Origin: Klebsiella pneumoniae
GTDB taxonomy: Bacteria > Myxococcota_A > UBA9042
Length of the DNA: 64,000 nucleotides
Assembly: GCA_945889325.1 (NCBI GenBank)
Contig: CAMDBH010000002.1
Location: forward strand, 39,242 to 103,241
Direction of reading: 5' to 3'
Within the stretch, counting starts at the first letter, position 1, and each line of letters opens with the position of its first letter. The notes under the pieces were generated by a model. The model was given only the letters and a program-made list of their open reading frames with translations. It had not been told where the DNA came from and ran no database searches. A program made the translations under genes and the position numbers. Of this stretch, positions 10,557 through 56,248 are shown one piece after another.

Positions 10557-11192
10557 TTAATCACGGGTGCTTACCTCCGCGGTTTGGCGCCGTGCGCGCG
10601 CGATCAGCGCGCCCATGGCAAAGGCCAAGCCGAGCATGGCGCCGCGGTCGACCGCGTCGGTCGGCGAAGCGGTGCACCCGCCCTTGTGCTCGGGCTCAGG
10701 TGCGGTCGCAACGGCGCCCGCATCGGCGACTTCGCCGCTTGCGGCATCGCCACTTGCAGCCGCGTCCGCACTTGCAGCCGCGTCAGCACTTGCCGCCGCG
10801 TCAGCGCCGGCCGCTGCGTCACCACTTGCCGCCGCATCGACGCTCTGTCCCGCATCTGGAGGCGGTGCGACACCCGCGTCCGGCTCGGCAGCCGCATCGC
10901 CACCTGCCGCGATATCGGCGGCAGCCGAAACGTCGTCGGGCGCCGCGACATCGGCGGCGACAGCGGCGTCCGCTTCACTGGGCGTTGGCTCTTTGGGCAG
11001 CGCAACATCGGGATCTGACGCTACATCTGCTGCTGGGGCCACGTCTTCGATGGCAGCGTCGGGGGATCCGTTGCTGGCATCTTCTTCGGCAAAGGCGACC
11101 AACGGCAGCAGGATCGCGCCGACGAAAGTCGCCAAAATACTCAACTGTTGAAAAATTCGACCCTGGGCAATGCTAAAAAATTGGACGCTCAT
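10557..11192 (-). CDS. secreted Ala/Asp-rich low-complexity protein with C-terminal MYXO-CTERM-like sorting signal (GGC + TM helix + RARR)
   Basis: N-terminal signal peptide (MSVQFFSIAQ…LPLVAFAEE). DAAASADAAAS repeats. C-terminus PEPEHKGGCTASP…MLGLAFAMGALIARARR. Confidence 0.5.
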   Translation of the reverse strand: MSVQFFSIAQGRIFQQLSILATFVGAILLPLVAFAEEDASNGSPDAAIEDVAPAADVASDPDVALPKEPTPSEADAAVAADVAAPDDVSAAADIAAGGDAAAEPDAGVAPPPDAGQSVDAAASGDAAAGADAAASADAAASADAAASGDAASGEVADAGAVATAPEPEHKGGCTASPTDAVDRGAMLGLAFAMGALIARARRQTAEVSTRD

Positions 11193-11351
11193 TTGCACAC
11201 TCCAAACGGCCATCAGCGGCCTGTCATCAGAGTGACCCTGCCCCAACGGCTGGGTCAAAATGGCGGTGCAAACCCTGACATTTTTGTCAGTGCCAATTTT
11301 TCAGGCGCTTGTGCTTGGGTGCCGCGACAAATTTGTCGCGTATCAAATCCG

Positions 11352-12188
11352 TCAGCCGAGATCGACGACCTGCCCTTCGGCGGCGGCAAACAGTTCAATC
11401 TTTGTAAGCTCTTGCATGACGAGGACTGACTTTTCAATCAGGGCATCGGTGGCATCGGGCGCGTGATGAAACAGCGCGCAGCGCCGAGCTCCCGCCTGTT
11501 CTGCAACGGATATCGCCTGTTGGGCCGTGGCCTGCCCATGTGCGTACACGCCTGGCGCGCGGTCATCGCCGGACATGTTGTCGTGGATCAGCAGATCGAC
11601 GCCGCGCACAAAATCGACAATCTGCGCAGGCACCGGCGCGACGCCGTAGTCAACAGCCGTAAACACGCCAATGGCTTGATCATCGGCCTGCACGCGAAAG
11701 CCGATCGTCGGCGCATTGCCGTGAGGCAACTGTATGGCGTGAATGGTAAAACCGTTGACTTCGATGGCGTGATTGGCCGCCAATTCGTGAATTTGTACTT
11801 GCGCAAACAAATTCTCAAGTGAGTTTATCGGACTGTAGTGATGATTCAGCAAATCTTCCAAGGTGTTGTGCAGCGGTTGCCCTTCCGACGCGGCACCGTA
11901 AATGTCAATGCGGTTGCCCGGCACGAAAAACGGCACGAAAAACGGCAAACCTTGGGTGTGCTCCAATTGGGTGTGCGACAGCAGAATCGGCAACATGCCT
12001 TGACCTTTAGAGAATTCAGCGGCCATGAGCGCGCGACCCAAGCCGATCGCGCCACTGCCTAGATCGACAAGCAGGCGAAGGCCCGCGCGGTTGGTGAATT
12101 CAAGGGCGCAAGTGTTACCGCCGAAGCGCAAAACGTCCGGACCGGTGACGGGAAAACCGCCGCGGGTGCCCCAAAAACGCACTTTCAC
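11352..12188 (-). CDS. MBL-fold metallo-hydrolase (paralog B)
   Basis: MKVRFWGTRGGFPVTGP…GGNTCALEF…VDLGSG…; HxHxDH-type region (LLSHTQLEHTQGL). Start-stop overlap with the upstream paralog. Confidence 0.7.
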   Translation of the reverse strand: MKVRFWGTRGGFPVTGPDVLRFGGNTCALEFTNRAGLRLLVDLGSGAIGLGRALMAAEFSKGQGMLPILLSHTQLEHTQGLPFFVPFFVPGNRIDIYGAASEGQPLHNTLEDLLNHHYSPINSLENLFAQVQIHELAANHAIEVNGFTIHAIQLPHGNAPTIGFRVQADDQAIGVFTAVDYGVAPVPAQIVDFVRGVDLLIHDNMSGDDRAPGVYAHGQATAQQAISVAEQAGARRCALFHHAPDATDALIEKSVLVMQELTKIELFAAAEGQVVDLG

Positions 12189-13222
12189 AGCGGCGCCCGT
12201 TTTGCGTGAGGTGCCGTTCTGTTGGCTTTTCGCTTGGGTGTCGCAAACGATGCTGGGACCAAACTGGGCGCATTTTTGGCTGTTTTGCGCAATCGATGCT
12301 TCGCCTTGCCCGCAACGACCAAAGTCATGCCCTGCCGCGAAGCGATGACCTCAATGCCGTGTTGAAGCCCCATTTCAGCGTATTTGACGGCCAATTCATC
12401 CATCATTTCATCATGATGAGACGGCGCGTGGTGGTAAAGCACCAGCGTGTGCACGCCGGTGCCAATGCAAGTTTGCAAGGCCTGATCGGGCGTGGAATGA
12501 CCGTAGTGCGGAAATCTTGTGTATTCTTCTTGGGTAAAGTGGGTGTCGTAAATCACGGTGTCGACCCCTTGCAACGCCGCGATCAAGTTTTGCTCCATGG
12601 TGCCCAGCGCCGCCCGATCGGCATCGGTCAGTGGTTCCATGCCTTTGAGGAAATGTCGCTTGTGCAAAATGTCGCAAAAGGGTGCGGTATCACACACGTA
12701 TGCCAGCGCTGCGCCCGCGCCCTGCACGCGATAGCCGACTGCGCCCAGCGGGTGGTTCAGGGATATCGGCAGCAGCGTAAAGTCAAAAATGTCAAACGCT
12801 TGACCCGGATGCACTTCGGAAAAGGTGAATTGCGCCGGGATCGCCGCCAAGGAGGCGGGGAAAAATTCCTTGCGCGCGGCGCCTGCGATCACGTCGTGAA
12901 GCGAATCCTCCGCCGCCCGCAGCATGTGAATCGTCACCCGCGCGCCTGGCAGCCACAAGGGCCGAAAAAACGGCAGACCTTGGATGTGATCCCAATGAAC
13001 GTGAGAGAGCAATATTTCAAATTCTGGAACAAATTTAGGATCTTTGGCGGCTTCTTGCATGATCTGCTCGCCCAGCGCCCGCAGGCCTGTTCCGGCATCG
13101 ATGATGATGCGTTTGCCGGAATTGGCGCGAACTTCGACGCAAGACGTTTCACCGCCGTAACGCACTGTCTGCGGACCTGGTACGGGATGGCTGCCGCGCA
13201 CACCCCAAAACGTCACTTGCAT
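12185..13222 (-). CDS. MBL-fold metallo-hydrolase (paralog A)
   Basis: MQVTFWGVRGSHPVPGP…GGETSCVEV…IDAGTG…LLSHVHWDHIQGLPFF. Confidence 0.7.
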   Translation of the reverse strand: MQVTFWGVRGSHPVPGPQTVRYGGETSCVEVRANSGKRIIIDAGTGLRALGEQIMQEAAKDPKFVPEFEILLSHVHWDHIQGLPFFRPLWLPGARVTIHMLRAAEDSLHDVIAGAARKEFFPASLAAIPAQFTFSEVHPGQAFDIFDFTLLPISLNHPLGAVGYRVQGAGAALAYVCDTAPFCDILHKRHFLKGMEPLTDADRAALGTMEQNLIAALQGVDTVIYDTHFTQEEYTRFPHYGHSTPDQALQTCIGTGVHTLVLYHHAPSHHDEMMDELAVKYAEMGLQHGIEVIASRQGMTLVVAGKAKHRLRKTAKNAPSLVPASFATPKRKANRTAPHAKRAPL

Positions 13223-13526: not shown

Positions 13527-15977
13527 TTGCGCGGCGGCGGTCGGACGCTTTTGACCGCGCTCTCGCTCCTGCAACCGGATGAACAAATGGCCAAAAGCGG
13601 ACTATCTGGCTTGCCGCCGCACCGCCCGGTTGAAACCGCGCTGACGTATTTGCCCGGCGTGAGCCGCTCTCGCGCAAAAGCGTTGCTCGATCGCGCGCGC
13701 ATCGATCCAGACACGACCACCGACGATCTTTCCGATCTCCAAGTCGATTTGCTGCGCCAATTGCTGCGCGCAGAACTGCGCGATGAATCAGGGGAAATTC
13801 CGGCAGATGCCGACAACAACCGGCCATGGCTGCACGGTGCCGGCGTGGAATTTGCGCCGTATCTCGATCGCGTCCGCGCAATGGTGCAGCGCTATTTGGT
13901 GGTGCTGCGGCCGTGGGATCGCTCGACGGAAGATCCGACCAAAAATCCATTGCCTGCAGGTACTTTGCAAACGCTCGACGCCACTTGCCTGCGCTGCTTG
14001 CGCGGTGAAGCGCTGGATGCAGAACGCACAGCTTTTGTCGGGCGTATGGATGCCCGCCTGATCGAACGCTATGATGATATTGCACCTTCTGGCGAAGGAG
14101 GCCAGCGTTTTGATGAAATGCGGGTCATCTTTGGCCTCAACGATCTGGAATGCGATTTGCTGTGGCTGCTGTTGGCGCCAGAGCTAGTCCCTGAATTTCT
14201 CTGGCTTTACCGAGCTTTATGGCGCGACACCGCGCGCAGCCAGTGGCCGCAGGATTTTTTGCAGCACGGCGTTGATCCTTTTGCCGTGCGCGGCAAGGCG
14301 GTCTTGGCCGCGCTGGCGGCAAATTCGACGCTGCGGCGCTACGGTTTGGTGCTGACGTCCGGCGAAGAGCCATCCCAAGTCTATCATAGGGCAGCTCTTT
14401 TTGCCTGTGGGTATCTTCTCGGCTTGGCCGTCAATCTGAGCGATCTGCCCGGCGTCCTGTCGCACGAAGCCCAAGACACCGCCGCCGATCAGCCGCCACC
14501 GGTTGATGCACCGCAAACACCGGCACTGCGGGAGGCGCTACAGCGCGGTTTTCGCGGGCGGCGGCGCTTTTTGGTGCTCGGGCCCGAACGGGCGGGCGCG
14601 CTGCGCATCGCGCGCGAGGCGCTGCAGCTTTTTGGCGAAGGCATTTTGGACGTTCGGCTGGATCTATTGCTGCAACAAGATGTTGCGCGCATTGGCCACG
14701 TGCTTGGCCGGGCGCGCCTTGCCCGCGCGGGGATTTTTTTTGAGCACGCCGAAGTCATTGACGCCGGCGACCACGGCTCAGAGCGACTGGCGCAAGTCGT
14801 GCAAATGTTGAGCCTTGAAACCACCACGATGTTTTTTCACAGCCAAGGTTCGCAGCGACAAGAAGAGAAAAAACTGATGCCTCGAGCGCATTTGGCGCTG
14901 CTGCGCGATTTGGGAGCCATTGAATTGCCGACCAACGCGCCCGGCATAGACGAACGCAAGATCTTGTGGGGCGATCGCCTGTTGCCGCACATGCAACCCA
15001 CTGAAACGGAAGATGTTGTCGCGTCCGTGAGCGTTTTCAAGTTTGGCGTGGACGAAATCGACCTCGCGGTCAATTTGGCGGCGGCGACGGCCAGACAGCG
15101 CAATCCCAACGTGGCCGCCGTGCGTATCGGCGACATTGAAAAAGCGTGCCGCGATGTCGCGAGTTCGCGGCTGGCCGGTCTGGCCACCCGCGTCAACGTG
15201 CGCGGACGCTGGGAGAATACGATTCTGCCTGAGGAAACCCGCGAGACACTGGACGAAATGGTGCGTTTTGGCAAATTCGCCGGCCACGTGCTAGATGATC
15301 AGGGCTATGGCCGAACGATGGGCTATGGTCGTGCATTGACAGCTCTTTTCAGCGGGCCGTCCGGTACGGGCAAGACGCTTTGCGCGGGCCTAGTAGCGCG
15401 CGATCTCGGTCTGGAGTTGTTCCGCGTCGATTTGGCGAGCGTGGTGTCAAAGTACATCGGTGAGACGGAAGAACGCTTGTCAAAACTATTCGATGCTTCG
15501 CAAGATTCTGGTATCGCTTTGCTTTTTGATGAAGCCGACTCCCTTTTTGCCAAACGCACCGATGTGCAGAGTTCTGTCGATCGCTATGCCAATCTGGAAG
15601 TGAATTATTTGTTGCAACGGCTGGAAGACTATGAAGGCTTGGTCATTTTGACCACCAACAACCCAGAAAGCATCGATCAGGCGTTTATGCGGCGCATTCG
15701 CTTTAAGCCCAATTTTCCCAAACCGGAAGTGGCCGAGCGCGAACGCCTGTGGCGCGTCATGATCCCCGAAACGGCCCCGCGCGAACCCGATTTGAAATTC
15801 CGCGACTTGGCCATCGATTACGAACTGACGGGCGGTCAGATTCAAAATGCCGTGATTCGCGCGGCCGTGTGGGCCGCGGAAAAAACGCAACCGATCAATT
15901 ACTTGCTGCTGGCAAAAGCGGGCGAACGCGAATACAAAGACGCCGGACGGGTTGTCCGCGTCTACGCCGACGAATAG
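13527..15977 (+). CDS. AAA+ ATPase family protein with ~560-aa uncharacterised N-terminal region. An alternative start lies at 13587.
   Basis: C-terminal classic AAA module: Walker A GPSGTGKT, Walker B LLFDEADSLF, then SSVDRYANLEVNYLLQRLEDYEGLVILTTNNPESIDQAFMRRIRF. Confidence 0.75.
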   Translation: MRGGGRTLLTALSLLQPDEQMAKSGLSGLPPHRPVETALTYLPGVSRSRAKALLDRARIDPDTTTDDLSDLQVDLLRQLLRAELRDESGEIPADADNNRPWLHGAGVEFAPYLDRVRAMVQRYLVVLRPWDRSTEDPTKNPLPAGTLQTLDATCLRCLRGEALDAERTAFVGRMDARLIERYDDIAPSGEGGQRFDEMRVIFGLNDLECDLLWLLLAPELVPEFLWLYRALWRDTARSQWPQDFLQHGVDPFAVRGKAVLAALAANSTLRRYGLVLTSGEEPSQVYHRAALFACGYLLGLAVNLSDLPGVLSHEAQDTAADQPPPVDAPQTPALREALQRGFRGRRRFLVLGPERAGALRIAREALQLFGEGILDVRLDLLLQQDVARIGHVLGRARLARAGIFFEHAEVIDAGDHGSERLAQVVQMLSLETTTMFFHSQGSQRQEEKKLMPRAHLALLRDLGAIELPTNAPGIDERKILWGDRLLPHMQPTETEDVVASVSVFKFGVDEIDLAVNLAAATARQRNPNVAAVRIGDIEKACRDVASSRLAGLATRVNVRGRWENTILPEETRETLDEMVRFGKFAGHVLDDQGYGRTMGYGRALTALFSGPSGTGKTLCAGLVARDLGLELFRVDLASVVSKYIGETEERLSKLFDASQDSGIALLFDEADSLFAKRTDVQSSVDRYANLEVNYLLQRLEDYEGLVILTTNNPESIDQAFMRRIRFKPNFPKPEVAERERLWRVMIPETAPREPDLKFRDLAIDYELTGGQIQNAVIRAAVWAAEKTQPINYLLLAKAGEREYKDAGRVVRVYADE

Positions 15978-16000
15978 CAAATATTTTTAGGAGGTTCAAG

Positions 16001-16270
16001 ATGGACAAGGCCACTTTTCTCGACATCGTCAATACGATCGTGCAAGGTTTTGAAGACGCCAATTTTCGCGCGCAATTTGCCGCCGCCCAAGCCAGCGGCG
16101 ACGTGGCGCAGATGATGGCCTTGCCAACTTCAGTGCAAGAACGCGCATTTGCCCGCCACGGTCTGACGGGCGCCAGCGGCACCACGGCGTTCAAGGAAGC
16201 TGGGCGCAATTTTGCGCTCGATGCCGACGTCGGACCGCTTTTGACGCGTATGAAGCAAGCGTTGAAGTAA
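16001..16270 (+). CDS. small hypothetical protein (89 aa) co-transcribed with the AAA+ ATPase
   Basis: Strong SD (aggagg at 15988-15993) 7 nt before the ATG. Only 24 nt after the ATPase stop. Confidence 0.55.
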   Translation: MDKATFLDIVNTIVQGFEDANFRAQFAAAQASGDVAQMMALPTSVQERAFARHGLTGASGTTAFKEAGRNFALDADVGPLLTRMKQALK

Positions 16271-16521
16271 TCACGACCGGCAAAAATGAGATTTTTGCCG
16301 GCGTAGGCAGTGCTAGCTGGGTCGCAAGTTCGCGCTTTTTAAGCGACTCACCCCTCCGTTTGACCCGTTCAAAGCAAAGTAATGGCCAAGAAAGTTGTTT
16401 TTGCCGATCCTCAATATTGTTGCGCGCGCAGGCCGGCAGATCGCAGCTAAAGCAAGCAAGGCGTGGCCCTTTTTGCGGCGTTTCGTTGACAGCTTGCGCC
16501 CGCGATTTTAGGCTATCGTTT

Positions 16522-17841
16522 ATGAGCGAGTCCCCCATCGCCAACCACGTGCGACAATTTATGCCCAAACCGCCCCGCGCAGCGCATCCGCGGTTCGGTT
16601 TTTTTGCGGCTATGCTATCGGTATCGCTGCTATTTCTCGGTGGCTGCGGTGCCGCGGCCAACGAGGCGTGGCGCGACACGCAGGTGGAATCGCTAGAGCC
16701 ATCGGGACCGCAGCGTTACGTCGATGCTTTGCGTTCTGCGGCACTTGGCCGTGTGGAAATGCGCGCCGGACAGGATGCCGTTGCCGGTGAACATTTCCGT
16801 CGCGCCTATCGCAGTCACGCCGAAGTCGGATTTTTATTGGCTTATGCCGATGCAGCGGAGCGCGCGGGGCTGTTCGCCGAGAGTTCAGAAGCTGCGCAGC
16901 GCGCGCTCTTGTATCCGCTTGACGACGAGCAGCGGTTGAAGGTTCAGGCGCAAGTGACGCGTCTGCAACCGCAAATCGTACCGGGGCTGATCGCCGTCGC
17001 GGTCAACGTGCGGCCGGAAAATGCCCGGGTCGAACTGAGCCAGAGCGCGTCAGATGGCCAAAAGCGCCTGCGGATTGTCATCGGTCCCAGCCGGGTGTTT
17101 TTGCAGCCCGGAACTTGGTCGGTCGAATCGACTTCCAAAGGTTTCAACAGTGAAATGAGGACGTTCCAAGTCGGCGGCCCGGAAGGTAACCTGTTGGCGA
17201 TTGCGCTGCAGGTGGAGGACAACGGGCCCGCGCTCGTCGGCACGCCGCATCCGGATCAGCCCGAAAAAATTGTCAAAAAGCCGATCGAACCGGAGAAAAA
17301 ACCAGATGTTGTGGTGAAAAAGCCCGATCCGGATGAAGAACCGGATGAAACGCCGCTGGTCAAGGCACCCGACCTCAAACCCACGCCGCGCGACGAAAAA
17401 GGCCCGATCGTGACGTACGAGGACAAAAACGCCCCGCCCAAGCGGAGTTTCCTGCACAAATGGGGGCCGATCGCGACGAGCGCGCTCGGCGTGGCGGCTT
17501 TGGGTGGCGGTGGCTACTTTGGCTACCGAGCAAAGCAAAGTGGCGATACTGCCAACGCGTTATCGCCTTCTGACCCAAAATACTCTAACTTGCTTAATCA
17601 GTATGCGGACAATGCGACCGCTAACGCAAAACTGGCCACTTACAGCTTTATCGGCGGTGGCGTTTTGCTTGCAGCCGGCACTTTGTGGATGTTTTTTGCC
17701 CCAACGGCCGATGTGCCGCCGCCGCCACCGACTGGAAAACCGGCCGTGCGGGTCCCGCCCGCAGCGCCCGCGTTGGCCGAAGTGTTGCTGCCGTCGGTCG
17801 GCGTAACGCCGAGTTCGCTCAGCTTCAGTTGGAAATTCTAG
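16522..17841 (+). CDS. lipoprotein with PEGA-like domain, Lys/Pro-rich linker and C-terminal TM segment
   Basis: Lipobox LLFLGGCG. PEGA-like stretch (GLIAVAVNVRPENARVEL…GTWSVESTSKGFNSEMRTFQV). KKPIEPEKKPDVVVKKPDPDEEPDE. Confidence 0.5.
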   Translation: MSESPIANHVRQFMPKPPRAAHPRFGFFAAMLSVSLLFLGGCGAAANEAWRDTQVESLEPSGPQRYVDALRSAALGRVEMRAGQDAVAGEHFRRAYRSHAEVGFLLAYADAAERAGLFAESSEAAQRALLYPLDDEQRLKVQAQVTRLQPQIVPGLIAVAVNVRPENARVELSQSASDGQKRLRIVIGPSRVFLQPGTWSVESTSKGFNSEMRTFQVGGPEGNLLAIALQVEDNGPALVGTPHPDQPEKIVKKPIEPEKKPDVVVKKPDPDEEPDETPLVKAPDLKPTPRDEKGPIVTYEDKNAPPKRSFLHKWGPIATSALGVAALGGGGYFGYRAKQSGDTANALSPSDPKYSNLLNQYADNATANAKLATYSFIGGGVLLAAGTLWMFFAPTADVPPPPPTGKPAVRVPPAAPALAEVLLPSVGVTPSSLSFSWKF

Positions 17842-17864
17842 ACAGTCGCGTTTTAGGAGTTCTC

Positions 17865-20800
17865 ATGCCCCTGTGTCGCAGCATTGACGTATTTCCGACC
17901 GGCCCAATCGGCCGCTTAGCTGCGATTATGCTTGTGTTATTGGGCGCGGTGACCAGTGCTTGTACGGTCCAGATCAACAACCAGGCGGGCGCTGGCGCGG
18001 GCGATGTCTGCACCCCTAATCCTTGCCAAACCAAGGGCGTTTGTTCTGGCTACACAGGCACTTGCACCGTCGACGCCAAAGACAAAACCAAATACAGCTG
18101 CGGCACTTGGAAACCGGTCGACCCAAAGAACGCAGTCGCCACACCGCTTGGTTATGAAGCGAGCGAAACCAGTTGCGACGGAAAAGACAACGATTGCGAC
18201 GGATTAACCGATGAGACCTACGATGCATCCAAAGCGACCTGCCCGGCTTTGGGCGTGTGCGGCGGCGCTGCTAAAGCGGTAGCCGTGTGCATCGCTGGAA
18301 CTTTACAGTGTAATTTTTCGGTGGTGCCCGCCTATGAAGCTTCGGAGACTACTTGCGACGGCAAGGACAACGACTGCAACGGCCAAACCGATGAAATGAC
18401 GGAAGCGCCGTTCAAAACCTGCAGCCACGCAGGCGTTTGCGCTGGGGCGGCGGCACCTGTCTGCGCGGCGGCCGCGGATAAGCCCGATGAATTTAAATGG
18501 GAATGCGGTTTTGGCGCATTGCCTGACTATGAGGTCGCCGAAACCACGTGCGACGGCAAGGACAACGATTGCGACGGCATCGCGGACGCCAATTTGGTTG
18601 TGGCTGGCCTGACTTGTGCGGCAGAAGGTGCGTGCAGCGCGGGTGTTGCACAGGTGTGCAAGGGCGGCGTGGCCGTTTGCGATTACAGCCAAGTCGTCGA
18701 GTACCAGATTTTTGAAACGAAATGCGATGGAATCGACAATGATTGCGACGGATCGACCGACAATTTTGCCGGGTCCGGCCAAGCGCTCGTGAGCGCCGAC
18801 AATGCCAGTTGCTTGAGCGCGGGCGTGTGCGGGGTGGGCAAAAGCGCAATCGTCAAGGTGTGCAAGAACAAGGAATTTATTTGCGATTACGCGGCTGTAC
18901 CTTCACACGAAACCACAGAAACCACCTGCGATGGCAAGGACAACGACTGCGACGGTATTGCAGACAACATCAGCGTGAAACCCAACCCTTCGCCGTGCGG
19001 CACCCAGGGTGTTTGCAACGGCGGCAAAGTCAGCTGTGAAAGCGGGTTATGGACGTGTAACTACGGCGCACTTGGCGCGCAAGGCTATGAGGCATTTGAA
19101 CTAACCTGCGACGGCAAAGACAATGACTGCGACGGCAAGGTCGATGAAACGCTGGACCCGGCGGCCAACAAGTGCAAGACAACGGGCGCTTGCGGTTACG
19201 GCACGCTGGTCATGTGCGCCGCGAGCAAAGCCAGTTGCGATTACACACATGTGCTTGGATTCCAAGACGTAACTGAAACGCAATGCGATGGCATCGACAA
19301 CAATTGCGATGGCAAGACTGACGAGCCGGAATCGCTTGAAACCAGCAAAAGCGGTTGCACCAAAGGTGTTTGCGAAGGCAAGGTCAAGGTCAGTTGCAAA
19401 GTCGGCAAGTGGGATTGCGATTTTTCGGCGGTTAGCAAAGACGAGCTCAAGTACGAAGCCAAGGAAGCGACCTGCGACGGATTGGATAATGATTGCAATG
19501 GATTAACCGATGAAGGTTTGACCAATGTGATCTTGGCCAAATGCCCCAATGGCGGCGAGTGCAAGGCTGGCGTCACCGCGGCTTGCGCTGGTGGCAAATA
19601 CGTGTGCAATTTCGATGGGATACCGACACATCAAGCCGTTGAATCGCTGTGCGACGGTTTGGACAACGATTGCGACGGCAAGACGGACGTCGGTGCGTGC
19701 GGCGCGGGGTCGCCTTGTGCCAGCAACGACCAATGTGCCAGCAACAACTGCGTCAGCGTGTACGGCGGCAACGGCAATGCCTGCGCAAATAAAGCCAATC
19801 AATGCGCGTTCTTGACCGAGGACAAAAAGGTAACTGCGGTCGACGATGCCGGCACCACCTGCGCGTCAGGGACCCAAGTTTTGACTTGCGGCAAAAGCAA
19901 ATGGAGTGCCGCCGTGAGTTGTCCGCCCAATTTGCCAGCCTGCGTCGGTGGTGGTTGCGCGCTGTGCTTGGCCAACGCCACGACCTGTGACCCAGCCGAC
20001 AACACCAAAGTCGTGCAATGCGCTGCGGACGGAAAAAGCCAGAATGCGGTCAAAAGTTGCAGCGGCGGCCAGCATTGCGCGGGTGCTGGCGCTTGTGTGC
20101 CAGACGCTTTGTTCGCCGTCAGTGAAACCGCATCGGCCACAGCCGCTGTCGGCGTCAAGCTCGCAAGCGGTGGTTTTGCGGTGGCTTGGCTCAATGAAAG
20201 CGCCAAACCGATTGAAGTGCGCGTGCGGATTTTCCAAAACGACGGCACGCCCAAAGGCCCTAGCATTGCTGTACAAAAGACCTTTCCGGCCGCCGCCGGA
20301 TCGCGGTTGGCCATCGCCAACCTTGGGGCCGGCTTTGCACTGGCCTGGGTGACATCCAGCACGCTGGAACCCGGCGATATTGCGTTGCGCATGTTTGACG
20401 TCAACGGCGCGGGCATCGGCAACGGCGCGATCCTCAACGCGACGACGGCGGACGTGCAGAATCAGCCGGCGATAGGCAGCAACGGCACAAGCGCGGTGGT
20501 CGCATGGGCGTCCGATGGCGTGGACACCAGCGGCCGCGGCATCGTGGCCATGCGCATCGACGCCACCGGCGCCGTTGTGGGCACTGAGATCATCGCAAAC
20601 GTCGACGCTAGCAACTCGATCGATCCGACTGAGGACGACGATCAAGTTCAGCCGGCAGTGGCGGTCAAGCCCGATGGCAGTTTTGGCATCGTCTGGCAAC
20701 ACAGCGGCTCCGGGGCGACCAAGGATCGCATCCGCGGCCGAACGTTCAATGCCGATGGCACGACTGTGGGCATCGTGCAAACGATGAGCGCGATCAACGT

Positions 20801-21251
20801 CAATAACCGCCTGCCGACGTTGGCCTTTGGCAAAAGCGAATTCGTCGTCGCTTGGACGGCGTTTAGTTTGGACGGTGCCGGATCAGGGGTCGGCTTGCGT
20901 CATACCGACGGCGCGCTTAAGCCAAGCCCAGCTGCTGCCGTGGCGGCAAACACAATAACCAATGGCGATCAAGATGATACGTCGATAACCACCTTGCTCG
21001 ACGGCAATTATGTGTTGCTGTGGAAATCGCCGGGAGCGGTCAGCGCCGGCGACGGCACTGAGGTCGACGGCCGCGATATCGCCAACACGACCGGCTATGT
21101 CAGCGGTGAAAACATATTGACCAAGGGCAATTCACTCGGCGATCAGGACCAAGGACGCGTCATTGTTTTTGCCGATGGGCGCATCTTGTACCTCTGGCGT
21201 TTCAAAGCCAACGCGACCACGCCGACTGTGGTTCAAGGCCTGTTCCGGTAG
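17865..21251 (+). CDS. giant lipoprotein with ~13 MopE-type putative metal-binding repeats (ETxCDGxDNDCDGxTDE) and a C-terminal ~6-blade repeat (beta-propeller-like) domain
   Basis: SD aggag 7 nt upstream. Lipobox AVTSAC. Repeats CDGKDNDCDG/CDGIDNDCDG/CDGLDNDCNG… C-terminal periodic (VAW…DG…GI…R.F) units. Confidence 0.75.
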   Translation: MPLCRSIDVFPTGPIGRLAAIMLVLLGAVTSACTVQINNQAGAGAGDVCTPNPCQTKGVCSGYTGTCTVDAKDKTKYSCGTWKPVDPKNAVATPLGYEASETSCDGKDNDCDGLTDETYDASKATCPALGVCGGAAKAVAVCIAGTLQCNFSVVPAYEASETTCDGKDNDCNGQTDEMTEAPFKTCSHAGVCAGAAAPVCAAAADKPDEFKWECGFGALPDYEVAETTCDGKDNDCDGIADANLVVAGLTCAAEGACSAGVAQVCKGGVAVCDYSQVVEYQIFETKCDGIDNDCDGSTDNFAGSGQALVSADNASCLSAGVCGVGKSAIVKVCKNKEFICDYAAVPSHETTETTCDGKDNDCDGIADNISVKPNPSPCGTQGVCNGGKVSCESGLWTCNYGALGAQGYEAFELTCDGKDNDCDGKVDETLDPAANKCKTTGACGYGTLVMCAASKASCDYTHVLGFQDVTETQCDGIDNNCDGKTDEPESLETSKSGCTKGVCEGKVKVSCKVGKWDCDFSAVSKDELKYEAKEATCDGLDNDCNGLTDEGLTNVILAKCPNGGECKAGVTAACAGGKYVCNFDGIPTHQAVESLCDGLDNDCDGKTDVGACGAGSPCASNDQCASNNCVSVYGGNGNACANKANQCAFLTEDKKVTAVDDAGTTCASGTQVLTCGKSKWSAAVSCPPNLPACVGGGCALCLANATTCDPADNTKVVQCAADGKSQNAVKSCSGGQHCAGAGACVPDALFAVSETASATAAVGVKLASGGFAVAWLNESAKPIEVRVRIFQNDGTPKGPSIAVQKTFPAAAGSRLAIANLGAGFALAWVTSSTLEPGDIALRMFDVNGAGIGNGAILNATTADVQNQPAIGSNGTSAVVAWASDGVDTSGRGIVAMRIDATGAVVGTEIIANVDASNSIDPTEDDDQVQPAVAVKPDGSFGIVWQHSGSGATKDRIRGRTFNADGTTVGIVQTMSAINVNNRLPTLAFGKSEFVVAWTAFSLDGAGSGVGLRHTDGALKPSPAAAVAANTITNGDQDDTSITTLLDGNYVLLWKSPGAVSAGDGTEVDGRDIANTTGYVSGENILTKGNSLGDQDQGRVIVFADGRILYLWRFKANATTPTVVQGLFR

Positions 21252-22905: not shown

Positions 22906-23012
22906 CTCGGCCCCTAATGGGACCGCGCCGATCTTGCGAACCTGTGAATATCTAAAACGTTTTGTGCCAAATCGGTAACGGACGTGCAAGCGGCGACAGC
23001 AAAAGGATTCAA

Positions 23013-24707
23013 ATGACAGAGAATTTCCAGACCGGTGCTTTTGACGACGATTTTGAAAAACAATTCCTCGAATGGGAAAAACAACAAAACGTCATCGAAG
23101 GCGAGATCGTGCGCGGCACGGTTTTGTCGGTCAACAAAGATTTCGTCATCGTCGACATTTCGTACAAGAGCGAAGGCCAGATTGCCGTTAGTGAATTCAC
23201 CGAACACGATGGCACTGTCAATGTCGCTCCCGGCGACGTGATCGATGTCTACGTTGAAAACCGTGAGAATGACAACGGTTTGGTCGAACTGTCCAAAGAG
23301 AAGGCCGATCGCCTCAAGATTTGGGACGAAATCGCCGAAGCCTGTGAAAATGAAGAACTTGTCGAAGGCATCATCACCGCGCGCGTCAAGGGCGGCTTGA
23401 CTGTCGACATCGGCGTCAAGGCGTTTTTGCCCGGCAGCCAAGTCGATTTGCGCCCCGTGCGCAACTTAGAGAAGTACATCGGCCAGCGTTTCCACTTCAA
23501 AGTCATCAAGTTCAACAAGAAGCGCGGCAACATCGTGCTCTCGCGGCGCGCGCTGCTGGAGAAACAACGCGAGGCCCTCAAAAGCCAGACGTTGGGCAAA
23601 CTGGAAGTCGGTATGGTTGTTGACGGTATCGTCAAGAATATCACCGAGTACGGTGCATTCATCGATCTCGGCGGCATTGACGGCTTGTTGCACATCACGG
23701 ACATGTCGTGGGCCCGCGTCAACCATCCTTCTGAAATGTTTGAGGTTGGCCAGGAAGTCAAAGTTCGCGTGCTCAAGTACGATGCCGATCGCGAGCGCGT
23801 CAGCTTGGGTCTGAAGCAAAACAGTGAAGATCCATGGCTTAACATCGATGCAAAGTTCCAAGTCGGCCAACGCGTCAAGGGCAAAGTCGTCAGTCTGACC
23901 GATTACGGCGCATTTATTGAGATGGATGCAGGCGTGGAAGGCCTGATTCACATTAGTGAAATGTCCTGGACCAAGCGCGTCAAGCACCCCTCCAAGGTGT
24001 TGAGCCTGGGCGACGAGATCGAGGCGCAAATCCTCGAAATCGATCCGCGGGCCAAACGCATTTCGCTCGGCATGAAGCAAATCGAGCAAAATCCGTGGGA
24101 TGTGATGTCCAACACGTATCCGATGAACAGCAAGGTCAAGGGCGTTGTGCGCAACATCACCAATTTCGGTATCTTTATCGGGATTGAAGATGGCATTGAC
24201 GGTCTGTGTCACGTGACGGATTTGTCGTGGTCGCACCGCGTCAAGCATCCGCAGGACATTTACAAGAAAGGCGATGAAGTCGAAGCGATTGTGCTGTCGA
24301 TCGATCCGGAAAAGGAGCGTTTCAGCCTCGGTATCAAGCAGATGATGCCCGATCCGTGGAATGAAATTCACAAGAAATATGCGCGTGGTTCAGTGCATGA
24401 AGGCAAGATCACCAAGCTGTTGGACTTTGGTGCGATCGTCGAACTGGACGAATTCATCGAGGGCTTCTTGCACATTTCTGAAATTGCAGAAGAAAAGATC
24501 GACAACATCCACAATGCCCTCAAAGAAGGCGACACGACCAAGGTCAAGGTGATTTCGATCATCGTCGATGAGCGCAAGCTCGGTCTGTCGATCAAGCGGG
24601 TCGGTCAGGATGACGAAGATTATTCTTACGACAACGCCACGGTCACGGGACCCACGACGATCGGCGATCTGGTGCGTGAGAAGTTTGGCAATATGAACTT
24701 GGGTTAA
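23013..24707 (+). CDS. rpsA: 30S ribosomal protein S1
   Basis: Six S1 domains; N-terminus [23 protein letters not shown]…[29 protein letters not shown]. Confidence 0.9.
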
Positions 24708-24828: not shown

Positions 24829-26985
24829 CTAAACCTTAGGTTTCTTCGCCTTGCGCGGTGGCGCATCGCCAGCCAGCGGCTTGGTCGCCTTGGGTGCCTT
24901 GAACCGCGATTCCACCGGTTGCGCGGCCGTCTGCGGCGCTGCGCCGGCTGACTGCGGCTGCGGGAAACCGGCTTCACTGTTTTTCCAGCGCGGCGGCGTC
25001 GGGCGATCTTCGGGCTGGGCCATGCCCAAAATGGGCCCAGTTGCCGACACGCGGATCTGCAGAAAACGCCCGCAGATCATGGCGCGTTTCATCCGCTCGA
25101 GCACTTGTGGCACAAACTGGACCGGCAATTGCACCAGACTGAAATTGTCGCTGATTTCAATGGTGCCCATCGCTTGACCAGGCACACCCGCTTCGTTGGC
25201 GATCGCGCCCACGATGTCCTGTGGCCGCACGCCGTTGCGCCGTCCGACGCCGAGCGACAGCCAAACGCGATCGCCGCCCTGCGGGCGTTCTTCGCGCATC
25301 GGCGGCCGTTCATCGCGCGATGGTCGGTGATCGTCGTAGATCTGCGGGCGCTCGTCTCGCATCTGCGGGCGCTCGTCTCGCATCTGCGGGCGTTCGTCGC
25401 GCATTTGCGGGCGTTCGTCGCGCGTTTGCGGGCGGTCGTCGCGCGCGCGCGCTTGTTCCTCGCGCATCGGATGGGCGCGCGAACGTTCCGCGGGTGGCGG
25501 TTGGGCGGGCAGGGATGGTTGCGGCGGCCGATTGGGCGCCAGCTTCGGCGGTCGCGGGTCGGCAGCGCGAGGCGCCGGTTTGAATTCCGGTCGTTGCTGT
25601 TGCGGCGCAAACAGATCCGCTCCCAAATCCGCCTGCAGCGGCCGATCGCCCCAAGCCAAGTTGGCCAATGCAGCGGCCACGTCCTCCATCGGCGTGCCTT
25701 CGCTCAAAAGCTTGTTCAATAGCGCGCGGTAAGGCCCCAGATCGTCGCGCAAAAGCGTTTTGGCGACAGCGGCTGAAAATCTAGTAATCCTGGACTCTTG
25801 CACGTCGCGCAGCGTGGGCAACGGCATTTGCGCGATCTTTTGGCCGGTGAAGCGTTCCAGATCGCGCAGTTTGCGCTGCTCGCGCGGCGTGACGAACAAG
25901 ACCGACTTGCCGCTGCGCCCGGCGCGACCGGTGCGGCCGATGCGATGGACGTAAACTTCGGATTCACCGGGTAAATCTGCGTTGACAACCAAATTGATCT
26001 TTTCCACATCCAAACCGCGCGCCGCGACGTCGGTTGCAACCACGATGCGCAACTGGCCGTTTTTCAAGCGCCTGATCACGCTTTGACGCGCCGACTGGGC
26101 CATGTCGCCGTGCATCGCTTCGCTCGCGAAACCACGGTTCTCAAGCATTTCCGCCAGTTCCGCACAACCCGAGCGAGTGCGCGCGAAAACCAGCACGGCG
26201 TCGATTTCTTCCACGGTGAGCAACCGAACCAAAGCTTCCAGCTTATGCTGCTGTTCTACAATGATAAAGCGCTGATCGACAGTCGCCACGGTCAGGGCGC
26301 GCCGCTCCACTTCAATCGTTTCCGGATCGCGCAAGTAGCGATGGGCAATGCGCGCGATTTCCGGCGGCATGGTTGCAGAAAACAACGCCATACGCCGAAC
26401 TGGCGGCATTTGCGAAAGAATTTGCTCCACATCGTCGACAAAACCCATGCGCAGCATTTCATCGGCTTCATCGAGCACCGCCATGCGCACTTTGTCTAAC
26501 TTGAGCGATCCACGGCTCAAATGGTCCAAAATGCGCCCAGGCGTGCCGACCACCACGCGGACTGTCCCTTCCAAACGCCGCAGTTGCCGCACGATCGGAT
26601 CGCCACCGAAAATCGCCAGCACACCGACTTGGCCCATGTGTCGCGCATATTCTTCAATATGTTCACAGACTTGTATCGCCAATTCCCGCGTCGGCGCCAA
26701 GATCAGCGCCTGTACGCTGCGATCATTCATATCCAGCAGTTGCAGAAGCGGCAGGGCGAAGGCGCCCGTTTTACCGGTACCCGTCTGCGCCTGACCCAGC
26801 ACATCGCGCCCGTTCAAAAGCGGCGGGATAGTGCGCATTTGGATCGGCGTCGGTGTGACATGGCCTAGGTCTTCAAGCGCGCGCAAAAGCGCCGGGGTTA
26901 GGCCCAAATCACTAAATGTTTGAGTAGGTTCAATCAGGTTGTCGTCATTGATCTGCGGGGTCTGCATCAATTTTTCCAAGGGCAT
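24829..26985 (-). CDS. deaD: DEAD-box ATP-dependent RNA helicase (DeaD/CsdA-like) with Arg/Pro-rich C-terminal tail containing DERPQMR heptad repeats
   Basis: Q-motif region (TFSDLGLTPALLRALEDLGHVTPTPIQ); AQTGTGKT; DEAD box (VLDEADEML); SAT; HRIGRTGRAG. C-terminus RDERPQMRDERPQMRDERPQ…. Confidence 0.85.
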   Translation of the reverse strand: MPLEKLMQTPQINDDNLIEPTQTFSDLGLTPALLRALEDLGHVTPTPIQMRTIPPLLNGRDVLGQAQTGTGKTGAFALPLLQLLDMNDRSVQALILAPTRELAIQVCEHIEEYARHMGQVGVLAIFGGDPIVRQLRRLEGTVRVVVGTPGRILDHLSRGSLKLDKVRMAVLDEADEMLRMGFVDDVEQILSQMPPVRRMALFSATMPPEIARIAHRYLRDPETIEVERRALTVATVDQRFIIVEQQHKLEALVRLLTVEEIDAVLVFARTRSGCAELAEMLENRGFASEAMHGDMAQSARQSVIRRLKNGQLRIVVATDVAARGLDVEKINLVVNADLPGESEVYVHRIGRTGRAGRSGKSVLFVTPREQRKLRDLERFTGQKIAQMPLPTLRDVQESRITRFSAAVAKTLLRDDLGPYRALLNKLLSEGTPMEDVAAALANLAWGDRPLQADLGADLFAPQQQRPEFKPAPRAADPRPPKLAPNRPPQPSLPAQPPPAERSRAHPMREEQARARDDRPQTRDERPQMRDERPQMRDERPQMRDERPQIYDDHRPSRDERPPMREERPQGGDRVWLSLGVGRRNGVRPQDIVGAIANEAGVPGQAMGTIEISDNFSLVQLPVQFVPQVLERMKRAMICGRFLQIRVSATGPILGMAQPEDRPTPPRWKNSEAGFPQPQSAGAAPQTAAQPVESRFKAPKATKPLAGDAPPRKAKKPKV
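25280..25450. repeat. tandem 21-bp repeats (5 good units plus degenerate flanking units) inside the helicase C-terminal coding region
   Basis: ctgcgggcgYtcgtcNcgcat repeated head-to-tail between ~25342 and 25446. Confidence 0.7.
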
Positions 26986-27124
26986 TCGCCGCGGGTCAGG
27001 TCGGCGCAAATCAGCTGCGTCGGCGCCGAAGTGCGGCGAGCGGGGCGACAGCTTAGCACACTTCAGGCCTTGCGTCCGGCAACCCCGCAGGAGTCGCATC
27101 TTGCGTGGACGATTCGCACTGCCG

Positions 27125-27838
27125 TCACTCCTCAGAAAGCGGAGCGCAATCCATACCTTGACTAGCGAGACAGCCACAAGCTACGTCGCCCGTGTTGCAC
27201 AAACCAAATGAGGACAGCGTGCCGTTTGCTTTGGGCAGAGTCGCATGAGCTACAAACGGTGTGGCCGCGTCGCCGTCGACAACGCGGGTGAAACTTGTGG
27301 CAGATCCAGTGGTTTGCTTTGGAAATGTCACATGGGCCCAGACCGTGCCGTCGCGGCCGCGAAATTCAAAATGGCCCCCGGCATCGGGTAGCTTCAGCAG
27401 GTGATCCAAGTGAATAACTGTTGTACCTTCATGCACCTGCAACGGTGAAGCTTGGGCGGCCGTCAGCACAATTAGGCTGCCCGCGCGCAAACACTCGCCG
27501 TCGATGATCGTGCCGTGGCGCTGCAGGCCGGCCCACAACTCGCCGCCGACCAAGCTCACAGGCGATGCATCGGCCGGAAGGGTTAGCTCGATCGCTTCGT
27601 CTAGCGCGTTGGATTCGCCATCGCCATCGACGTCGATGCCGCCTGGCCGCACCAAATATTCATTGATAATAAGCTCATACGGATTTGGTGCGCGACAAAG
27701 GCCGACGGCACCGGCGTCGTCCTTTGTCGCGCCGCCGTCGGCCTGTCCTGCAGCTGGCGGCGTTCTTGATCCGCCCAAGCAGGCATTCAACGTGAGCAAT
27801 AACAGCAAGAAATTCAAACGACCGATCGACTTTTTCAT
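27125..27838 (-). CDS. lipoprotein with Lamin Tail Domain (LTD)
   Basis: Lipobox LLLLTLNAC. LTD signature ELIINEYLVRPGGIDVDGDGESNALDEAIELT. Confidence 0.6.
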   Translation of the reverse strand: MKKSIGRLNFLLLLLTLNACLGGSRTPPAAGQADGGATKDDAGAVGLCRAPNPYELIINEYLVRPGGIDVDGDGESNALDEAIELTLPADASPVSLVGGELWAGLQRHGTIIDGECLRAGSLIVLTAAQASPLQVHEGTTVIHLDHLLKLPDAGGHFEFRGRDGTVWAHVTFPKQTTGSATSFTRVVDGDAATPFVAHATLPKANGTLSSFGLCNTGDVACGCLASQGMDCAPLSEE

Positions 27839-30721: not shown

Positions 30722-33700
30722 TTACTGGCAAACCAGCACGCTCTGCCAGCGCAGGTCGCTTAGTCTGCCGTCGCCATCGATGGCGCCGTCGATCAAAGCG
30801 CCTTCTGGCCGCGACCCAGCCTGCACCTGCCCTTGCCATGCCGGCAGGGCGCCTTTCCAAGCAAGCATTTGAATTGTCGGCGTAAGTTTAAGCACCCGCC
30901 CCTCAGCGGGTCCGGCGCCGAGCGGCGCAACGGCCACCAGCAAGTGTTGCGTCAAGTTGGCAGTGCCGAAAACCGCCAAACGTGCAGGCGGTTGGGGGTC
31001 ACTGGCCACCAGCGTCCAACCACTGGCTTGCGCCAGATCAAAGCGCCAAATTTGCAAGCCATCGTCGACCACCGCCAAAACCAGCCGATTGTTGAGCGCA
31101 TCGTGAACAAGTGCCGAACCGGCGCGGTAGGCAGGCCCCGGAGACATCGCGGTTTGCCACAGCAATTGCTTGGAATTTTTTAGCAAATTCATGGCCCACA
31201 GCTCAGCAGTTGCAGCGGCATCGCCAGCGCCAAACAAGAAGGCTTGGGGAAATTGTTCGACTTGGGCCACCGCTGGGTCGGACTTGGCACCCGGCATAAA
31301 CGGCAGCAAATCTGCAGGCAATGGCGCCCAAGTGCCTGTGATCAAATTCAAACGCCAACCGCCGGGCGCGGCGGCCTGCACATCCGGCGACAAAAGCTGG
31401 CTGTTATTCGATATTTTTTCAAGGCCGCTCCACATCACGACGTGCTGGCCGTCGTCTTCGACCACGACCGCTGGCAGCGCGCGCCCGCTTTGACCTTGCG
31501 GGTAGGGCAGCGGCTGCCACTTGCCCGCGTGCAGCCGCCAAGACGGCCCGGACAAATCAAAATTTGCGCCGTGGAGCGAGGCACCGCCGATGCGCAAAAG
31601 ATCTTGCCCAACCGCGACCCAGCGCGCGCCAAGCACCGGTTCAGGCGATAAGTCCATATTCTGCCAGGTAAATTTTGTCGCTGCCTGCGCGGTTTGCCAG
31701 ACGCTGGCTTGGGCAATCCCTGCGGCCTGACCGAGCGCCAAAACCACCTCGCCGTCTTTGCCCACGCCGATGGCGGCCCCAATGACCGGCAACGCTGGCC
31801 ATTGCGGCATCGGCTGCCAGATCTTGCTCGCGATCGAATAATTTTGCAGCGCAACGGGCTGACCAACCGCGTCAACGGCGTCGATCAGCCAAACTTGACC
31901 AGCGGCGGCATCGCACAGCAGTTTTCCAGGCGTGTCATTTGCCGCTTGACTGGGCGGCACCGGCAGCGCGGTCCAGGTCTTTTGCCCAAAGGGCAGCACT
32001 GCAAACCAAGCCGCGGCCCCGCCGTGCAAAACGTACAAGTCACCCTTGGCTGTGACGCAGGGGGATGCCACACCGGCGCCGAGCCCGGGCTGTGGCACCG
32101 CGATGGGGGCGTCCCATGTTTGCTTTGCTAAATCATGGCGTTGTGCGATTGGGCCGGAACCGTCGGCGCTGCCGCCAAACAGCCACACGCTGTTGCTTGC
32201 GGCAACGTAGACGGCTTGGGCGTTGACGCGGGGCTGGGGTTGGTTTTTCCAATCTGGGTCGCTGGTTTTTGCCGATATCAAATCCAATTCACGCGCCGGG
32301 GCCGCTGCCGCATTTTCGTCCACACCGCCGATCAACCAAAGCCGAGGGTTGAGCACCGGCCCAGCGCCGCCGGGCACGTACACGGCCGCCGCCTGACGCC
32401 GCCGCAAATCGGCCTGCGATACGACAAGTTTCCATTGAAAATCGCTAAATTGCAAACTCCAAACTTCGCCCAGCGTCACCAATGGCGTGTTGCCGAGCGA
32501 TCCGCCCTGCCCGCCCGCGACAAACAATTGGCCACCGCCGCCGCAACTGGCGAATTGGCTGCGTGCCTGCGGTCTTAAGCCGGCCATGGCTGCAGGCTCG
32601 CTCCACTTGGTGACGATGCCTTCGTCCGTCTTGCCGTCGCAATTGTTGTCCAATTCGTCGCAACTGGATTCGACGGTTTCATAGTTTGCGGTCAGACCGT
32701 AGTCGCACACCCATGCGCCTTCTTGGCACGATTTCAGGACGATACCGGCGCCACAGACGCCCGCGGTGCTGCAGGTAAGCTCACTTGGAGGCGACAGGCC
32801 GTCGTCGGTCATCCCATCGCAATCGTCGTCGATATTGTTGCAACTCTCTGGCTTTGCTTGCGATTTAGTGCCATTGGGATGCGTCGAGCAGGTCGGCGCG
32901 CCGCTGGCGCTGCATTCCACGACACCCACGCCGCAAGCGCCGTAGCCGTCGCAAACGGCGCCCAAACCCTTGCCGTTCCAGTTCTGGTTTTCATCGGTGA
33001 GGCCGTTGCAATTGTCGTCTATGCCGTTGCAAACCTCCGTTTTAGCTTGACTTTGTGGCCCGTCGGCCAACGTCGAACACGTCACGCCACCGGTCTTTGA
33101 ACAAGCAACGCTGCCCGCCGCGCAAATGCCGACGCCCGGGCACGGCGAACCCAGCGGTTTGCCATCGAGCTCAAAGATTTCATCGGTTTTGCCGTTGCAG
33201 TCGTCATCGATCGCGTTGCAAACTTCGGCGCTGAACTTGCTATCGGGCCCGCCGGGTGTCGCCGAACAGACGGCCAAGCCGTTGGCGGCACAAATCACCA
33301 CGCCTGTGCCGCACGCGCCGACGCCCGTGCACGCCGCGCCCAGCGGCAGATTGCCGTCTTTTGTCGCTAAGCCTTCATCGGTGAGGCCGTCGCAATCGTC
33401 GTCAAGGCCGTTGCAAGTTTCCGCACTGGCCTTGCTGTCGGCGCCGCCCGGATCACTGGAACAGATCGATTTGCCTTCTTTGCCGCAACTTACCACGCCC
33501 AAGCCGCATTCACCGGCACCCAAGCACGGCGAACCGATCGCGAGGCCGGCCAGACCGAAGCCTTCATCGGTGTGGCCATCGCAATTGTCATCCAAACCGT
33601 TGCAGATTTCCGGTTGTTTGTTGGTTTTGCTGCCGCCCGGGTTGCTCGAGCACGCGGCTGCGCCGGCGACGCACTCAACCGTGCCAGCGCCGCAAGTGCC

Positions 33701-50473: not shown

Positions 50474-50684
50474 TCCCCCTGACCAAAAGTCGAAACAGCC
50501 CGTTGCAGGCGTTTGGTTCAAACCATTCAACGCGCTCCCGCGCCGCTCAAGCGCCACTCCCATGGCGTTCAGACGGCGCCCCCGGGGCGCACCCTTTAAG
50601 TCTAACCCTGTCACAGCGAGGATGCAATTGTATAAGCCGCATAAATGTTCGCTGAATCGCAGCGCCAAAGGACCGCGGGCAGCG

Positions 50685-56044: not shown

Positions 56045-56248
56045 CACTCCAAAGCAACAAGACACAACTGGGAACTTTTGGCTCCGCGCCCATGCGAGGT
56101 CAAGCCCAAGCTACGGTTCACCCCCACCGCCACGCGCTTTCAAGCGCAGCCGGACGCTGCACTGTAGCATGCCAGCGCCCCGTGTATCAAATCGGCGGAC
56201 GGCCGCAAATATGGGCGCGAGGTATGCCGATCGCCGGCCCGCAACCTT

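Follow-up and report, generated by a model that had tools for sequence, protein, structure and literature searches.

The 64-kb window analysed here (the whole stretch of 64,000 nucleotides, from contig CAMDBH010000002.1) carries a two-gene operon on the forward strand at positions 13587-16270. The first gene encodes an AAA+ ATPase of the Afp15/Pvc15 type and the second an 89-residue protein that profile comparison identifies as a remote homologue of the eukaryotic Protein C10 (C12orf57). The operon is bicistronic and is inherited as a unit in one lineage of uncultured Myxococcota, known from metagenome-assembled genomes (MAGs) labelled "Myxococcales" or "Deltaproteobacteria". The ATPase family itself is known. 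What is new is a member that lies outside a contractile injection system (CIS), is fused to the N-terminal domain of ribosomal protein uS13 and is paired with a C10-family partner. We favour, at about an even chance of being right, a free-standing Afp15-type unfoldase with a dedicated C10-like putative cofactor, acting as a lineage-specific housekeeping remodeller rather than as a defence or injection component.

Sequence comparison confirmed that both genes are real and exceed chance by a wide margin. Full-length homologues of the ATPase form about 46 clusters (60-81% identity). The small protein has 123 clusters, all of 85-107 residues (45-72% identity), and 12 columns are invariant among 55 sampled sequences. 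An earlier note, made from the sequence alone, had described an ATPase of 816 residues. Read directly, the open reading frame (ORF) does run for 816 residues from TTG 13527 to 15977 (+ strand), but the protein almost certainly starts at ATG 13587 and has 796 residues (13587-15977), because a database protein of 100% identity is 796 residues long and every close homologue in the clade begins MA(K/R)SGL. The small gene follows at 16001-16270 (+). The strong Shine-Dalgarno sequence claimed for it is present, AGGAGG at 15989-15994 (+), six nucleotides 5' of the ATG, although the gap between the ATPase TAG and this ATG is 23 nucleotides and not 24. A stem-loop just 3' of the small gene (16273-16304, +; 14 predicted base pairs including a perfect run of 11, -21.2 kcal/mol, z = -2.2) may be the end of the operon; it has no T-tail and was not called by the terminator scan. 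A sigma-70 promoter scan of the operon region found none, and Rfam gave no match within or around the operon.

The suggestion that the ATPase and its small neighbour form a two-gene module was borne out by their co-occurrence. The C10-like ORF lies directly 3' of the ATPase gene in all nine independent clade loci, L003 and the P0008 locus included; six of these loci were studied as DNA, counting the window, and three by annotation. By contrast, no C10-like ORF was found within 10 kb at any of 159 other loci of the ATPase family. At least 22 ATPase clusters also have a longest contig identical in size to that of a small-protein cluster. The two genes either overlap by 4 nucleotides or are separated by 3-67 nucleotides. 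This spacing supports co-transcription of the pair and the proposed translational coupling in some of the loci. These observations support a truly conserved two-gene module, kept despite differing flanks. The matches listed in our metagenome scan belonged to the wider family rather than to further members of the clade and served as a negative control.

The ATPase ends in a canonical classic-clade AAA module, as the earlier note had recognised, with GPSGTGKT, LLFDEAD, TTNN and MRRIRF all present. This active module, D2 (residues 584-785; 15336-15941, +), is matched by PF00004 (E 7.6e-26, 91.5 bits in Pfam), by VAT/Cdc48 sequences in PDB and by Afp15. Motif reading on the + strand places Walker A GPSGTGKT at 15354-15377, pore loop 1 KYIG at 15450-15461 and Walker B LLFDEAD at 15519-15539. 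A TTNN sensor-1 and Arg fingers within MRRIRF complete the set, and both the motifs and the pore loop are intact. A sequence search of PDB with the ATPase gave no match outside D2.

The approximately 560 residues in front of D2 had been thought to lack any recognisable motif, which proved incorrect: they hold a uS13 N-domain, a winged-helix region of the Afp15/Pvc15 kind, and a degenerate D1 with its lid. An AlphaFold2 model built on 54 homologues (mean predicted local distance difference test score, pLDDT, 84.6) has a tandem AAA arrangement, with a small helical domain (residues ~10-68), a helical/winged-helix region (~85-293), an alpha/beta core of five parallel strands (312-447), a helical lid (454-529) and the AAA module (584-785). 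Foldseek aligned about 545 model columns to the D1-D2 cassette of Cdc48/p97, NVL, Rix7 and Drg1 (E 1e-18). Residues 312-529 (14520-15173, +) are thus the first AAA module, D1. Its motifs are degenerate, with GPERAGAL at the Walker A position (versus GPPGTGKT) and FFEH at the Walker B position (versus hhhhDE), and judged by these motifs D1 is a nucleotide-dead, catalytically dead AAA module. The helical/winged-helix region (13839-14465, +) was delimited from PF22977 and the model. PF22977 ('winged helix domain, variant') matches residues 138-261 at 31.2 bits (cutoff 27), and the model has a low-confidence or disordered loop at residues 109-132 inside this region.

This architecture is that of Afp15/Pvc15. 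BLASTP against Afp15 of Serratia pADAP gave 38% identity over 316 residues (E 3e-61; residues 476-789), an alignment spanning the D1 lid to the C-terminus, and hhalign against Afp15 gave E 2e-44. Afp15 is much closer than VAT/Cdc48, for which the best single stretch in the PDB sequence search reached only about E 1e-14. Afp15 in pADAP has the same Pfam architecture in the same order (PF22977 at 72 bits, AAA at 95 bits), and across Afp15 and CIS-linked ATPases PF22977 scores 72-129 bits. In the published account of Pvc15 (PMC11495950), the N domain resembles a winged helix, D1 is deviant, and D2 is active and has the DEAD motif, RR fingers and a pore loop of the K-Y type. The window ATPase matches this description, sharing the PF22977 winged-helix domain followed by PF00004, the deviant D1, the active D2 and the paired Arg fingers. 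The earlier note had allowed that the N-terminal region might fall into a known family such as CbbX or FtsH, and that the small ORF might be unconserved. The region does belong to a known family, Afp15/Pvc15 rather than CbbX/FtsH, whilst the small ORF is strongly conserved. A literature search by the accession PF22977 returned no papers.

The D1-D2 cassette is also shared with Cdc48/p97/VAT, NVL/Rix7 and Drg1/AFG2, on which it superposes (template modelling score 0.65 on the target) with the same classic-clade motifs and pore loop. In those enzymes N-terminal domains and small cofactors set the target, and several of them remodel ribosomal or pre-ribosomal particles. Unlike Cdc48/p97, the window ATPase has no double-psi-barrel N domain, its D1 is nucleotide-dead, and its putative cofactor is unrelated to UBX, SHP or Npl4-type adaptors. 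It scored 65 bits against the NCBIfam CDC48 model TIGR01243 (cutoff 803), its N region being uS13-like plus winged-helix, and is not a Cdc48.

The ATPase differs from Afp15/Pvc15 in an additional N-terminal domain of about 70 residues. A profile of the first ~110 residues of the clade, run against PDB sequences, matched only uS13/eS18 chains among the 60 matches listed (best E 1.1e-8), with residues 8-67 in register with uS13 residues 8-67. It is because the search listed only these chains, and in register, that we regard the ATPase N-terminus, on profile similarity, as a genuine uS13 N-domain (residues 8-67; 13608-13787, +). PF00416 (Ribosomal_S13) matches residues 9-67 at 26.2 bits, below its cutoff of 31, and the NCBIfam uS13_bact model TIGR03631 gives 28.7 bits (cutoff 130). 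The ATPase does not contain a full-length uS13: the match is limited to profile positions 7-65 and lies below the model cutoffs. The shared part is the N-terminal globular domain, whereas the basic C-terminal tail of uS13 is missing and the domain is fused to an ATPase. It is modelled with a pLDDT of about 90 and has 19 invariant columns in 22 clade sequences, a conservation as strong as that of D2. No uS13 N-domain was found at the 159 other family loci, nor in any of the CIS-linked ATPases examined. The sister protein at locus L096 starts exactly at the equivalent of residue ~85 and lacks the uS13-like domain. In sequence terms, the window ATPase is a uS13 N-domain joined to a complete Afp15-like protein that starts at about residue 85.

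Afp15/Pvc15 ATPases are typically encoded among injection-system genes. In Serratia pADAP the Afp15 gene is flanked by those for the tape measure and DUF4255, and more distant homologues with winged-helix and AAA domains sit in contractile-injection loci beside Pvc16_N, sheath, tube, VgrG and PAAR genes. We searched for CIS genes iteratively, using as seeds the Afp16, sheath, tube, VgrG and gp25 proteins of three reference loci. Among relatives with at least 18 kb of sequence, CIS genes were present at 57/70 loci (43/47 in GTDB genomes and 14/23 in metagenomes). In the clade, no CIS hallmark was found in the whole 64-kb window or in the five other loci with DNA, and none is annotated in the three further loci, giving 0/9 with a CIS gene within 10 kb. 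The window ATPase is encoded outside any contractile-injection gene cluster, with neither Afp16 nor tape-measure, sheath or tube genes close by.

The pair lies instead in a syntenic housekeeping region of the core genome. The conserved order is rpsB-tsf-pyrH-frr ... recO ... FtsX ... Big_5 protein, serA-like dehydrogenase, (purA) and ATPase, continuing with the small gene, an envelope protein of about 500 residues, a MopE-repeat protein, a Mur ligase and rpsA. At L001 the region of the pair comes directly after ftsW-murG-ftsQ-ftsA-ftsZ. At L003 the pair is flanked by a TPR protein upstream and ClpB downstream, and at the P0008 locus an insert of transposase and toxin-antitoxin genes replaces the ~500-residue and MopE genes but leaves the pair intact. 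The GC content of the pair is unremarkable and similar to that of its surroundings.

The ATPase might still serve a CIS encoded elsewhere, as a loader acting in trans, with the C10-like protein as cargo chaperone, adaptor or payload. Pvc15 is required for payload loading but not for particle assembly, and it binds and stabilises its clients (PMC11495950). Such a role would suit an ATPase family that is predominantly CIS-linked and in which the afp and pvc payload genes lie downstream of the ATPase, and one relative adjoins only an eCIS_core-domain protein. However, besides the absence of CIS genes from the nine loci and the window, the syntenic housekeeping location argues against a loader, as does the uS13-N fusion, which is unique to the clade and without counterpart in the CIS-linked ATPases examined. 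The small protein is also predicted to be fully folded and lacks the disordered N-terminal signal of PVC payloads. We consider a loader in trans rather unlikely.

Other free-standing relatives were seen. One is a winged-helix and AAA ATPase (P0058; L009:12266-13321) that adjoins an eCIS_core (PF13699) protein and a Ser/Thr kinase-TPR gene; no CIS structural gene lies within 10 kb, and the arrangement is possibly an 'ATPase plus client' pair outside a CIS locus. The nearest Myxococcota relatives beyond the clade (L016, L019) are likewise free-standing, with other neighbours. In the two nearest sister lineages (L015:12366-14618 and L096:11869-13365), the gene after the Afp15-like ATPase is not C10-like but an AAA-like paralogue that looks degenerate, a different two-gene solution. 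Several Afp15-like ATPases thus seem to have 'escaped' in Myxococcota, and the uS13-N fusion and the small partner set this clade apart among them.

AlphaFold2 modelled the small protein with high confidence (pLDDT 93.2) as five helices (residues 3-18, 20-32, 35-51, 57-71 and 78-88), and no relative was found in PDB by sequence or by fold. A resemblance to human Protein C10 was taken as a lead and tested. A profile of the small-protein family, searched against 1.8 billion representative proteins, returned remote matches at E 2e-9 to 1e-5, and Pfam assigns these to PF14974 (P_C10), several above the cutoff and one at 104 bits. In the reverse direction, the human C10 sequence used as seed scored 137 bits over the full PF14974 profile. 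The human-seeded C10 profile aligned with the small-protein family in hhalign at 97.9% probability (E 6.5e-13; 87/89 columns), and a C10 hidden Markov model seeded from eukaryotes matched the small ORF of the window at E 4.5e-6. The small protein of the window gave no match to PF14974 (gathering threshold 27 bits) at E <= 1, whilst 16 of 55 family members match P_C10 singly but below threshold (best E 7e-4), the only family to recur.

The likeness consists of a near end-to-end alignment at similar size, with the shared pattern F-E/S ... VQ ... (H/Y)G ... FK ... DP(D/E)(V/I). Both proteins are five-helix bundles, the human fold being taken from a published description in PMC13478489. The bacterial protein differs in falling below the Pfam threshold as a single sequence and in being encoded in an operon with an AAA+ ATPase. 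In the same paper the function of human C10 (C12orf57; Temtamy syndrome) is given as unknown, and an interface with ANKRD50 is predicted (PMC13478489). A second paper describes it as a protein without recognised domain or homology that binds the autoinhibitory segment of CAMK4 (PMC11838199). Neither text, as far as accessible, mentions a prokaryotic homologue or a link to an ATPase, and a literature search by the accession PF14974 returned no papers. We rejected a link between C12orf57 and AAA+ ribosome biogenesis: its mention in the 55LCC/AIRIM paper is incidental and concerns the translation of terminal oligopyrimidine (TOP) mRNA.

C10 domains were also found in tandem. The multi-domain proteins P0200, P0205, P0209, P0211, P0220, P0221 and P0223, presumably eukaryotic, have 3-7 copies, indicating that the domain is a repeat module as well as the single-domain human protein. 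A further protein, P0196 (3527 residues), is a repetitive, Glu/Lys-rich coiled coil that the small-protein profile matches 14 times with its first half. These matches, 104 bits together, may reflect either a genuine repeat derived from C10 or an artefact of composition.

A general association of C10 with AAA+ proteins was rejected, as there are free-standing prokaryotic C10-like genes without an AAA+ neighbour. The link with the ATPase is thus specific to the clade and not a property of the C10 family. Homotypic docking of the C10-like protein on the ATPase is unlikely, as the ATPase holds no C10-like segment in hhalign.

The two proteins could also be related as machine and client, with the ATPase controlling the folding state or release of the C10-like protein. 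Their strict co-occurrence and co-translation would fit such a relationship, as would the intact threading pore loop of the ATPase and the client binding and stabilisation known for Pvc15. But a 796-residue machine devoted to one stable 89-residue helical bundle (pLDDT 93) would be uneconomical, and the uS13-like and winged-helix targeting modules would be left unexplained. Because the small protein forms a stable bundle and has no conserved disordered tail from which threading could start, a substrate role is weaker than that of adaptor or regulator, and we judge it improbable.

Recurring AAA+ modules with a small partner had also been linked in the earlier note to conflict or quality-control systems. 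The conflict-system part of this proposal found no support. An anti-phage module, with an IetA-like ATPase and a small effector or sensor partner, would accord with IetA/IteA being the best match of the AAA module in both PADLOC and NCBIfam, and a free-standing C10-like protein, P0206, has a weak match to the EAD1 'effector-associated domain' (E 1.3e-3). Yet the NCBIfam IteA match reaches 84.6 bits against a cutoff of 510 and covers residues 544-765 only, and the PADLOC IetA match is likewise confined to the AAA module. These are generic AAA matches, in a protein whose N-terminal architecture differs from that of IetA. No IetS subtilisin-like protease accompanies the ATPase; the genes around it code for metallo-beta-lactamase (MBL)-fold hydrolases, the C10-like protein, an envelope protein and a protein with MopE repeats. 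PADLOC gave no match for the small protein, and no member of its family matches EAD1. The position is conserved in the core genome, with neither a variable island nor a GC anomaly, and the pair is confined to one lineage with vertical-looking divergence. A defence role is therefore very unlikely. The quality-control part, an unfoldase with a cofactor, is plausible.

What is established for classic-clade AAA+ proteins, together with the work on Pvc15, suggests how the favoured unfoldase and cofactor would work. The ATPase would form a hexamer held together or scaffolded by D1, in which ATP hydrolysis by D2 would drive a protein substrate through the pore and so unfold or extract it. The C10-like protein, made in step with the ATPase, would be a stoichiometric, dedicated adaptor or regulator on its N-terminal region. 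Together with this partner the uS13-like and winged-helix modules would steer the machine to its target, perhaps one associated with nucleic acid or the small ribosomal subunit, by homology. The binding of a regulatory segment by human C10, as described in PMC11838199, is consistent with a cofactor role.

Several points weigh against this picture. No AAA+ gene adjoins the free-standing C10-like genes found in two bacteria, one known from a Planctomycetota MAG, and hhalign detected no C10-like segment within the ATPase. A CIS locus may be present elsewhere in these genomes, beyond the loci searched. The only pointer to ribosome or nucleic-acid targeting is the homology of a 60-residue domain, and the translation genes nearby may mirror plain synteny within one lineage. 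Tight packing with the ~500-residue envelope protein, the MopE-repeat protein and the Mur ligase in several loci could instead indicate an envelope-related role.

A bolder version would make the ATPase a remodeller directed at the ribosome or another ribonucleoprotein (RNP). Its uS13-like domain would dock by mimicry on the 30S head or on a partner of uS13, with the C10-like protein as specificity cofactor, and the ancestral role of C10/C12orf57 would be that of cofactor or regulator of an ATP-driven remodelling enzyme. We regard this version as a long shot. Translation-related genes do occur near the pair: rpsA and deaD in the window (22962-24707, +, and 24829-27177, -), rpsB, tsf, pyrH and frr upstream in other clade loci (L176:1-3065), and RNase E/G in one. 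This is maybe mere synteny.

The remaining neighbours were recorded as follows. The envelope gene at 16360-17841 (+) encodes a protein of a family of about 440-550 residues without a Pfam match, found 3' of the pair in 6/9 clade loci, sometimes only 7-10 nucleotides after the small gene. Homologues lie at L001:10692-12341, L004:10803-12314, L006:8201-9712 and L176:12973-14286, whereas neither L003 nor the P0008 locus has the gene. The protein shows a motif like a lipobox (LLFLGGC), a linker rich in Pro and Lys, and hydrophobic segments at its C-terminal end, and its gene may share the operon of the pair. Numerous Cys-rich repeats of the MopE type ('CDGxDNDCDG') occur in two giant proteins of 1188 and 1245 residues (17685-21251, +, and 30722-34459, -), joined in the second by Kelch repeats. 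The gene for the first keeps synteny with the pair in most clade loci, with the Mur ligase after it. Upstream, the serA-like gene and the ATPase are separated by two tandem MBL-fold (Lactamase_B_2) paralogues on the opposite strand that overlap by 4 nucleotides (11352-12188 and 12185-13222, -), an insertion not present here in the other clade loci. Beyond them, a 233-residue Ala/Asp-rich low-complexity ORF (10557-11258, -) with 'DAAAS(G/A)' repeats and a hydrophobic, basic, anchor-like C-terminus has no Pfam match. Three consecutive proteins of 1321, 770 and 1025 residues at 46928-56065 (-), with InhA-like MAM domains and Dictyostelium-type CTDC repeats, resemble a secreted-protein array.

Current work on the Afp15/Pvc15 family treats it only as the loader of payloads into protein-delivery devices that can be engineered. 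The locus described here shows free-living descendants of the family with new domains and partners, and because they exist Afp15-type unfoldase activity is not tied to the syringe. This is the most certain of the implications. Next in certainty, the pair gives the Protein C10 superfamily its first conserved genomic association, and its first in a prokaryote. Human C12orf57 causes Temtamy syndrome, and the shared operon with an AAA+ unfoldase offers a concrete lead to function that can be tested. Least certain is the hint given by the fusion of a ribosomal-protein domain to an unfoldase, which is unusual and may point to a bacterial AAA+ machine directed at RNPs or ribosomes, a class well known in eukaryotes. 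If confirmed, such a machine would be the first ribosome remodeller of the classic AAA+ clade to be described from Bacteria, and an ancestral cofactor role for C10, if true, would offer a hypothesis open to testing for a human neurodevelopmental-disease protein whose mechanism is unknown.

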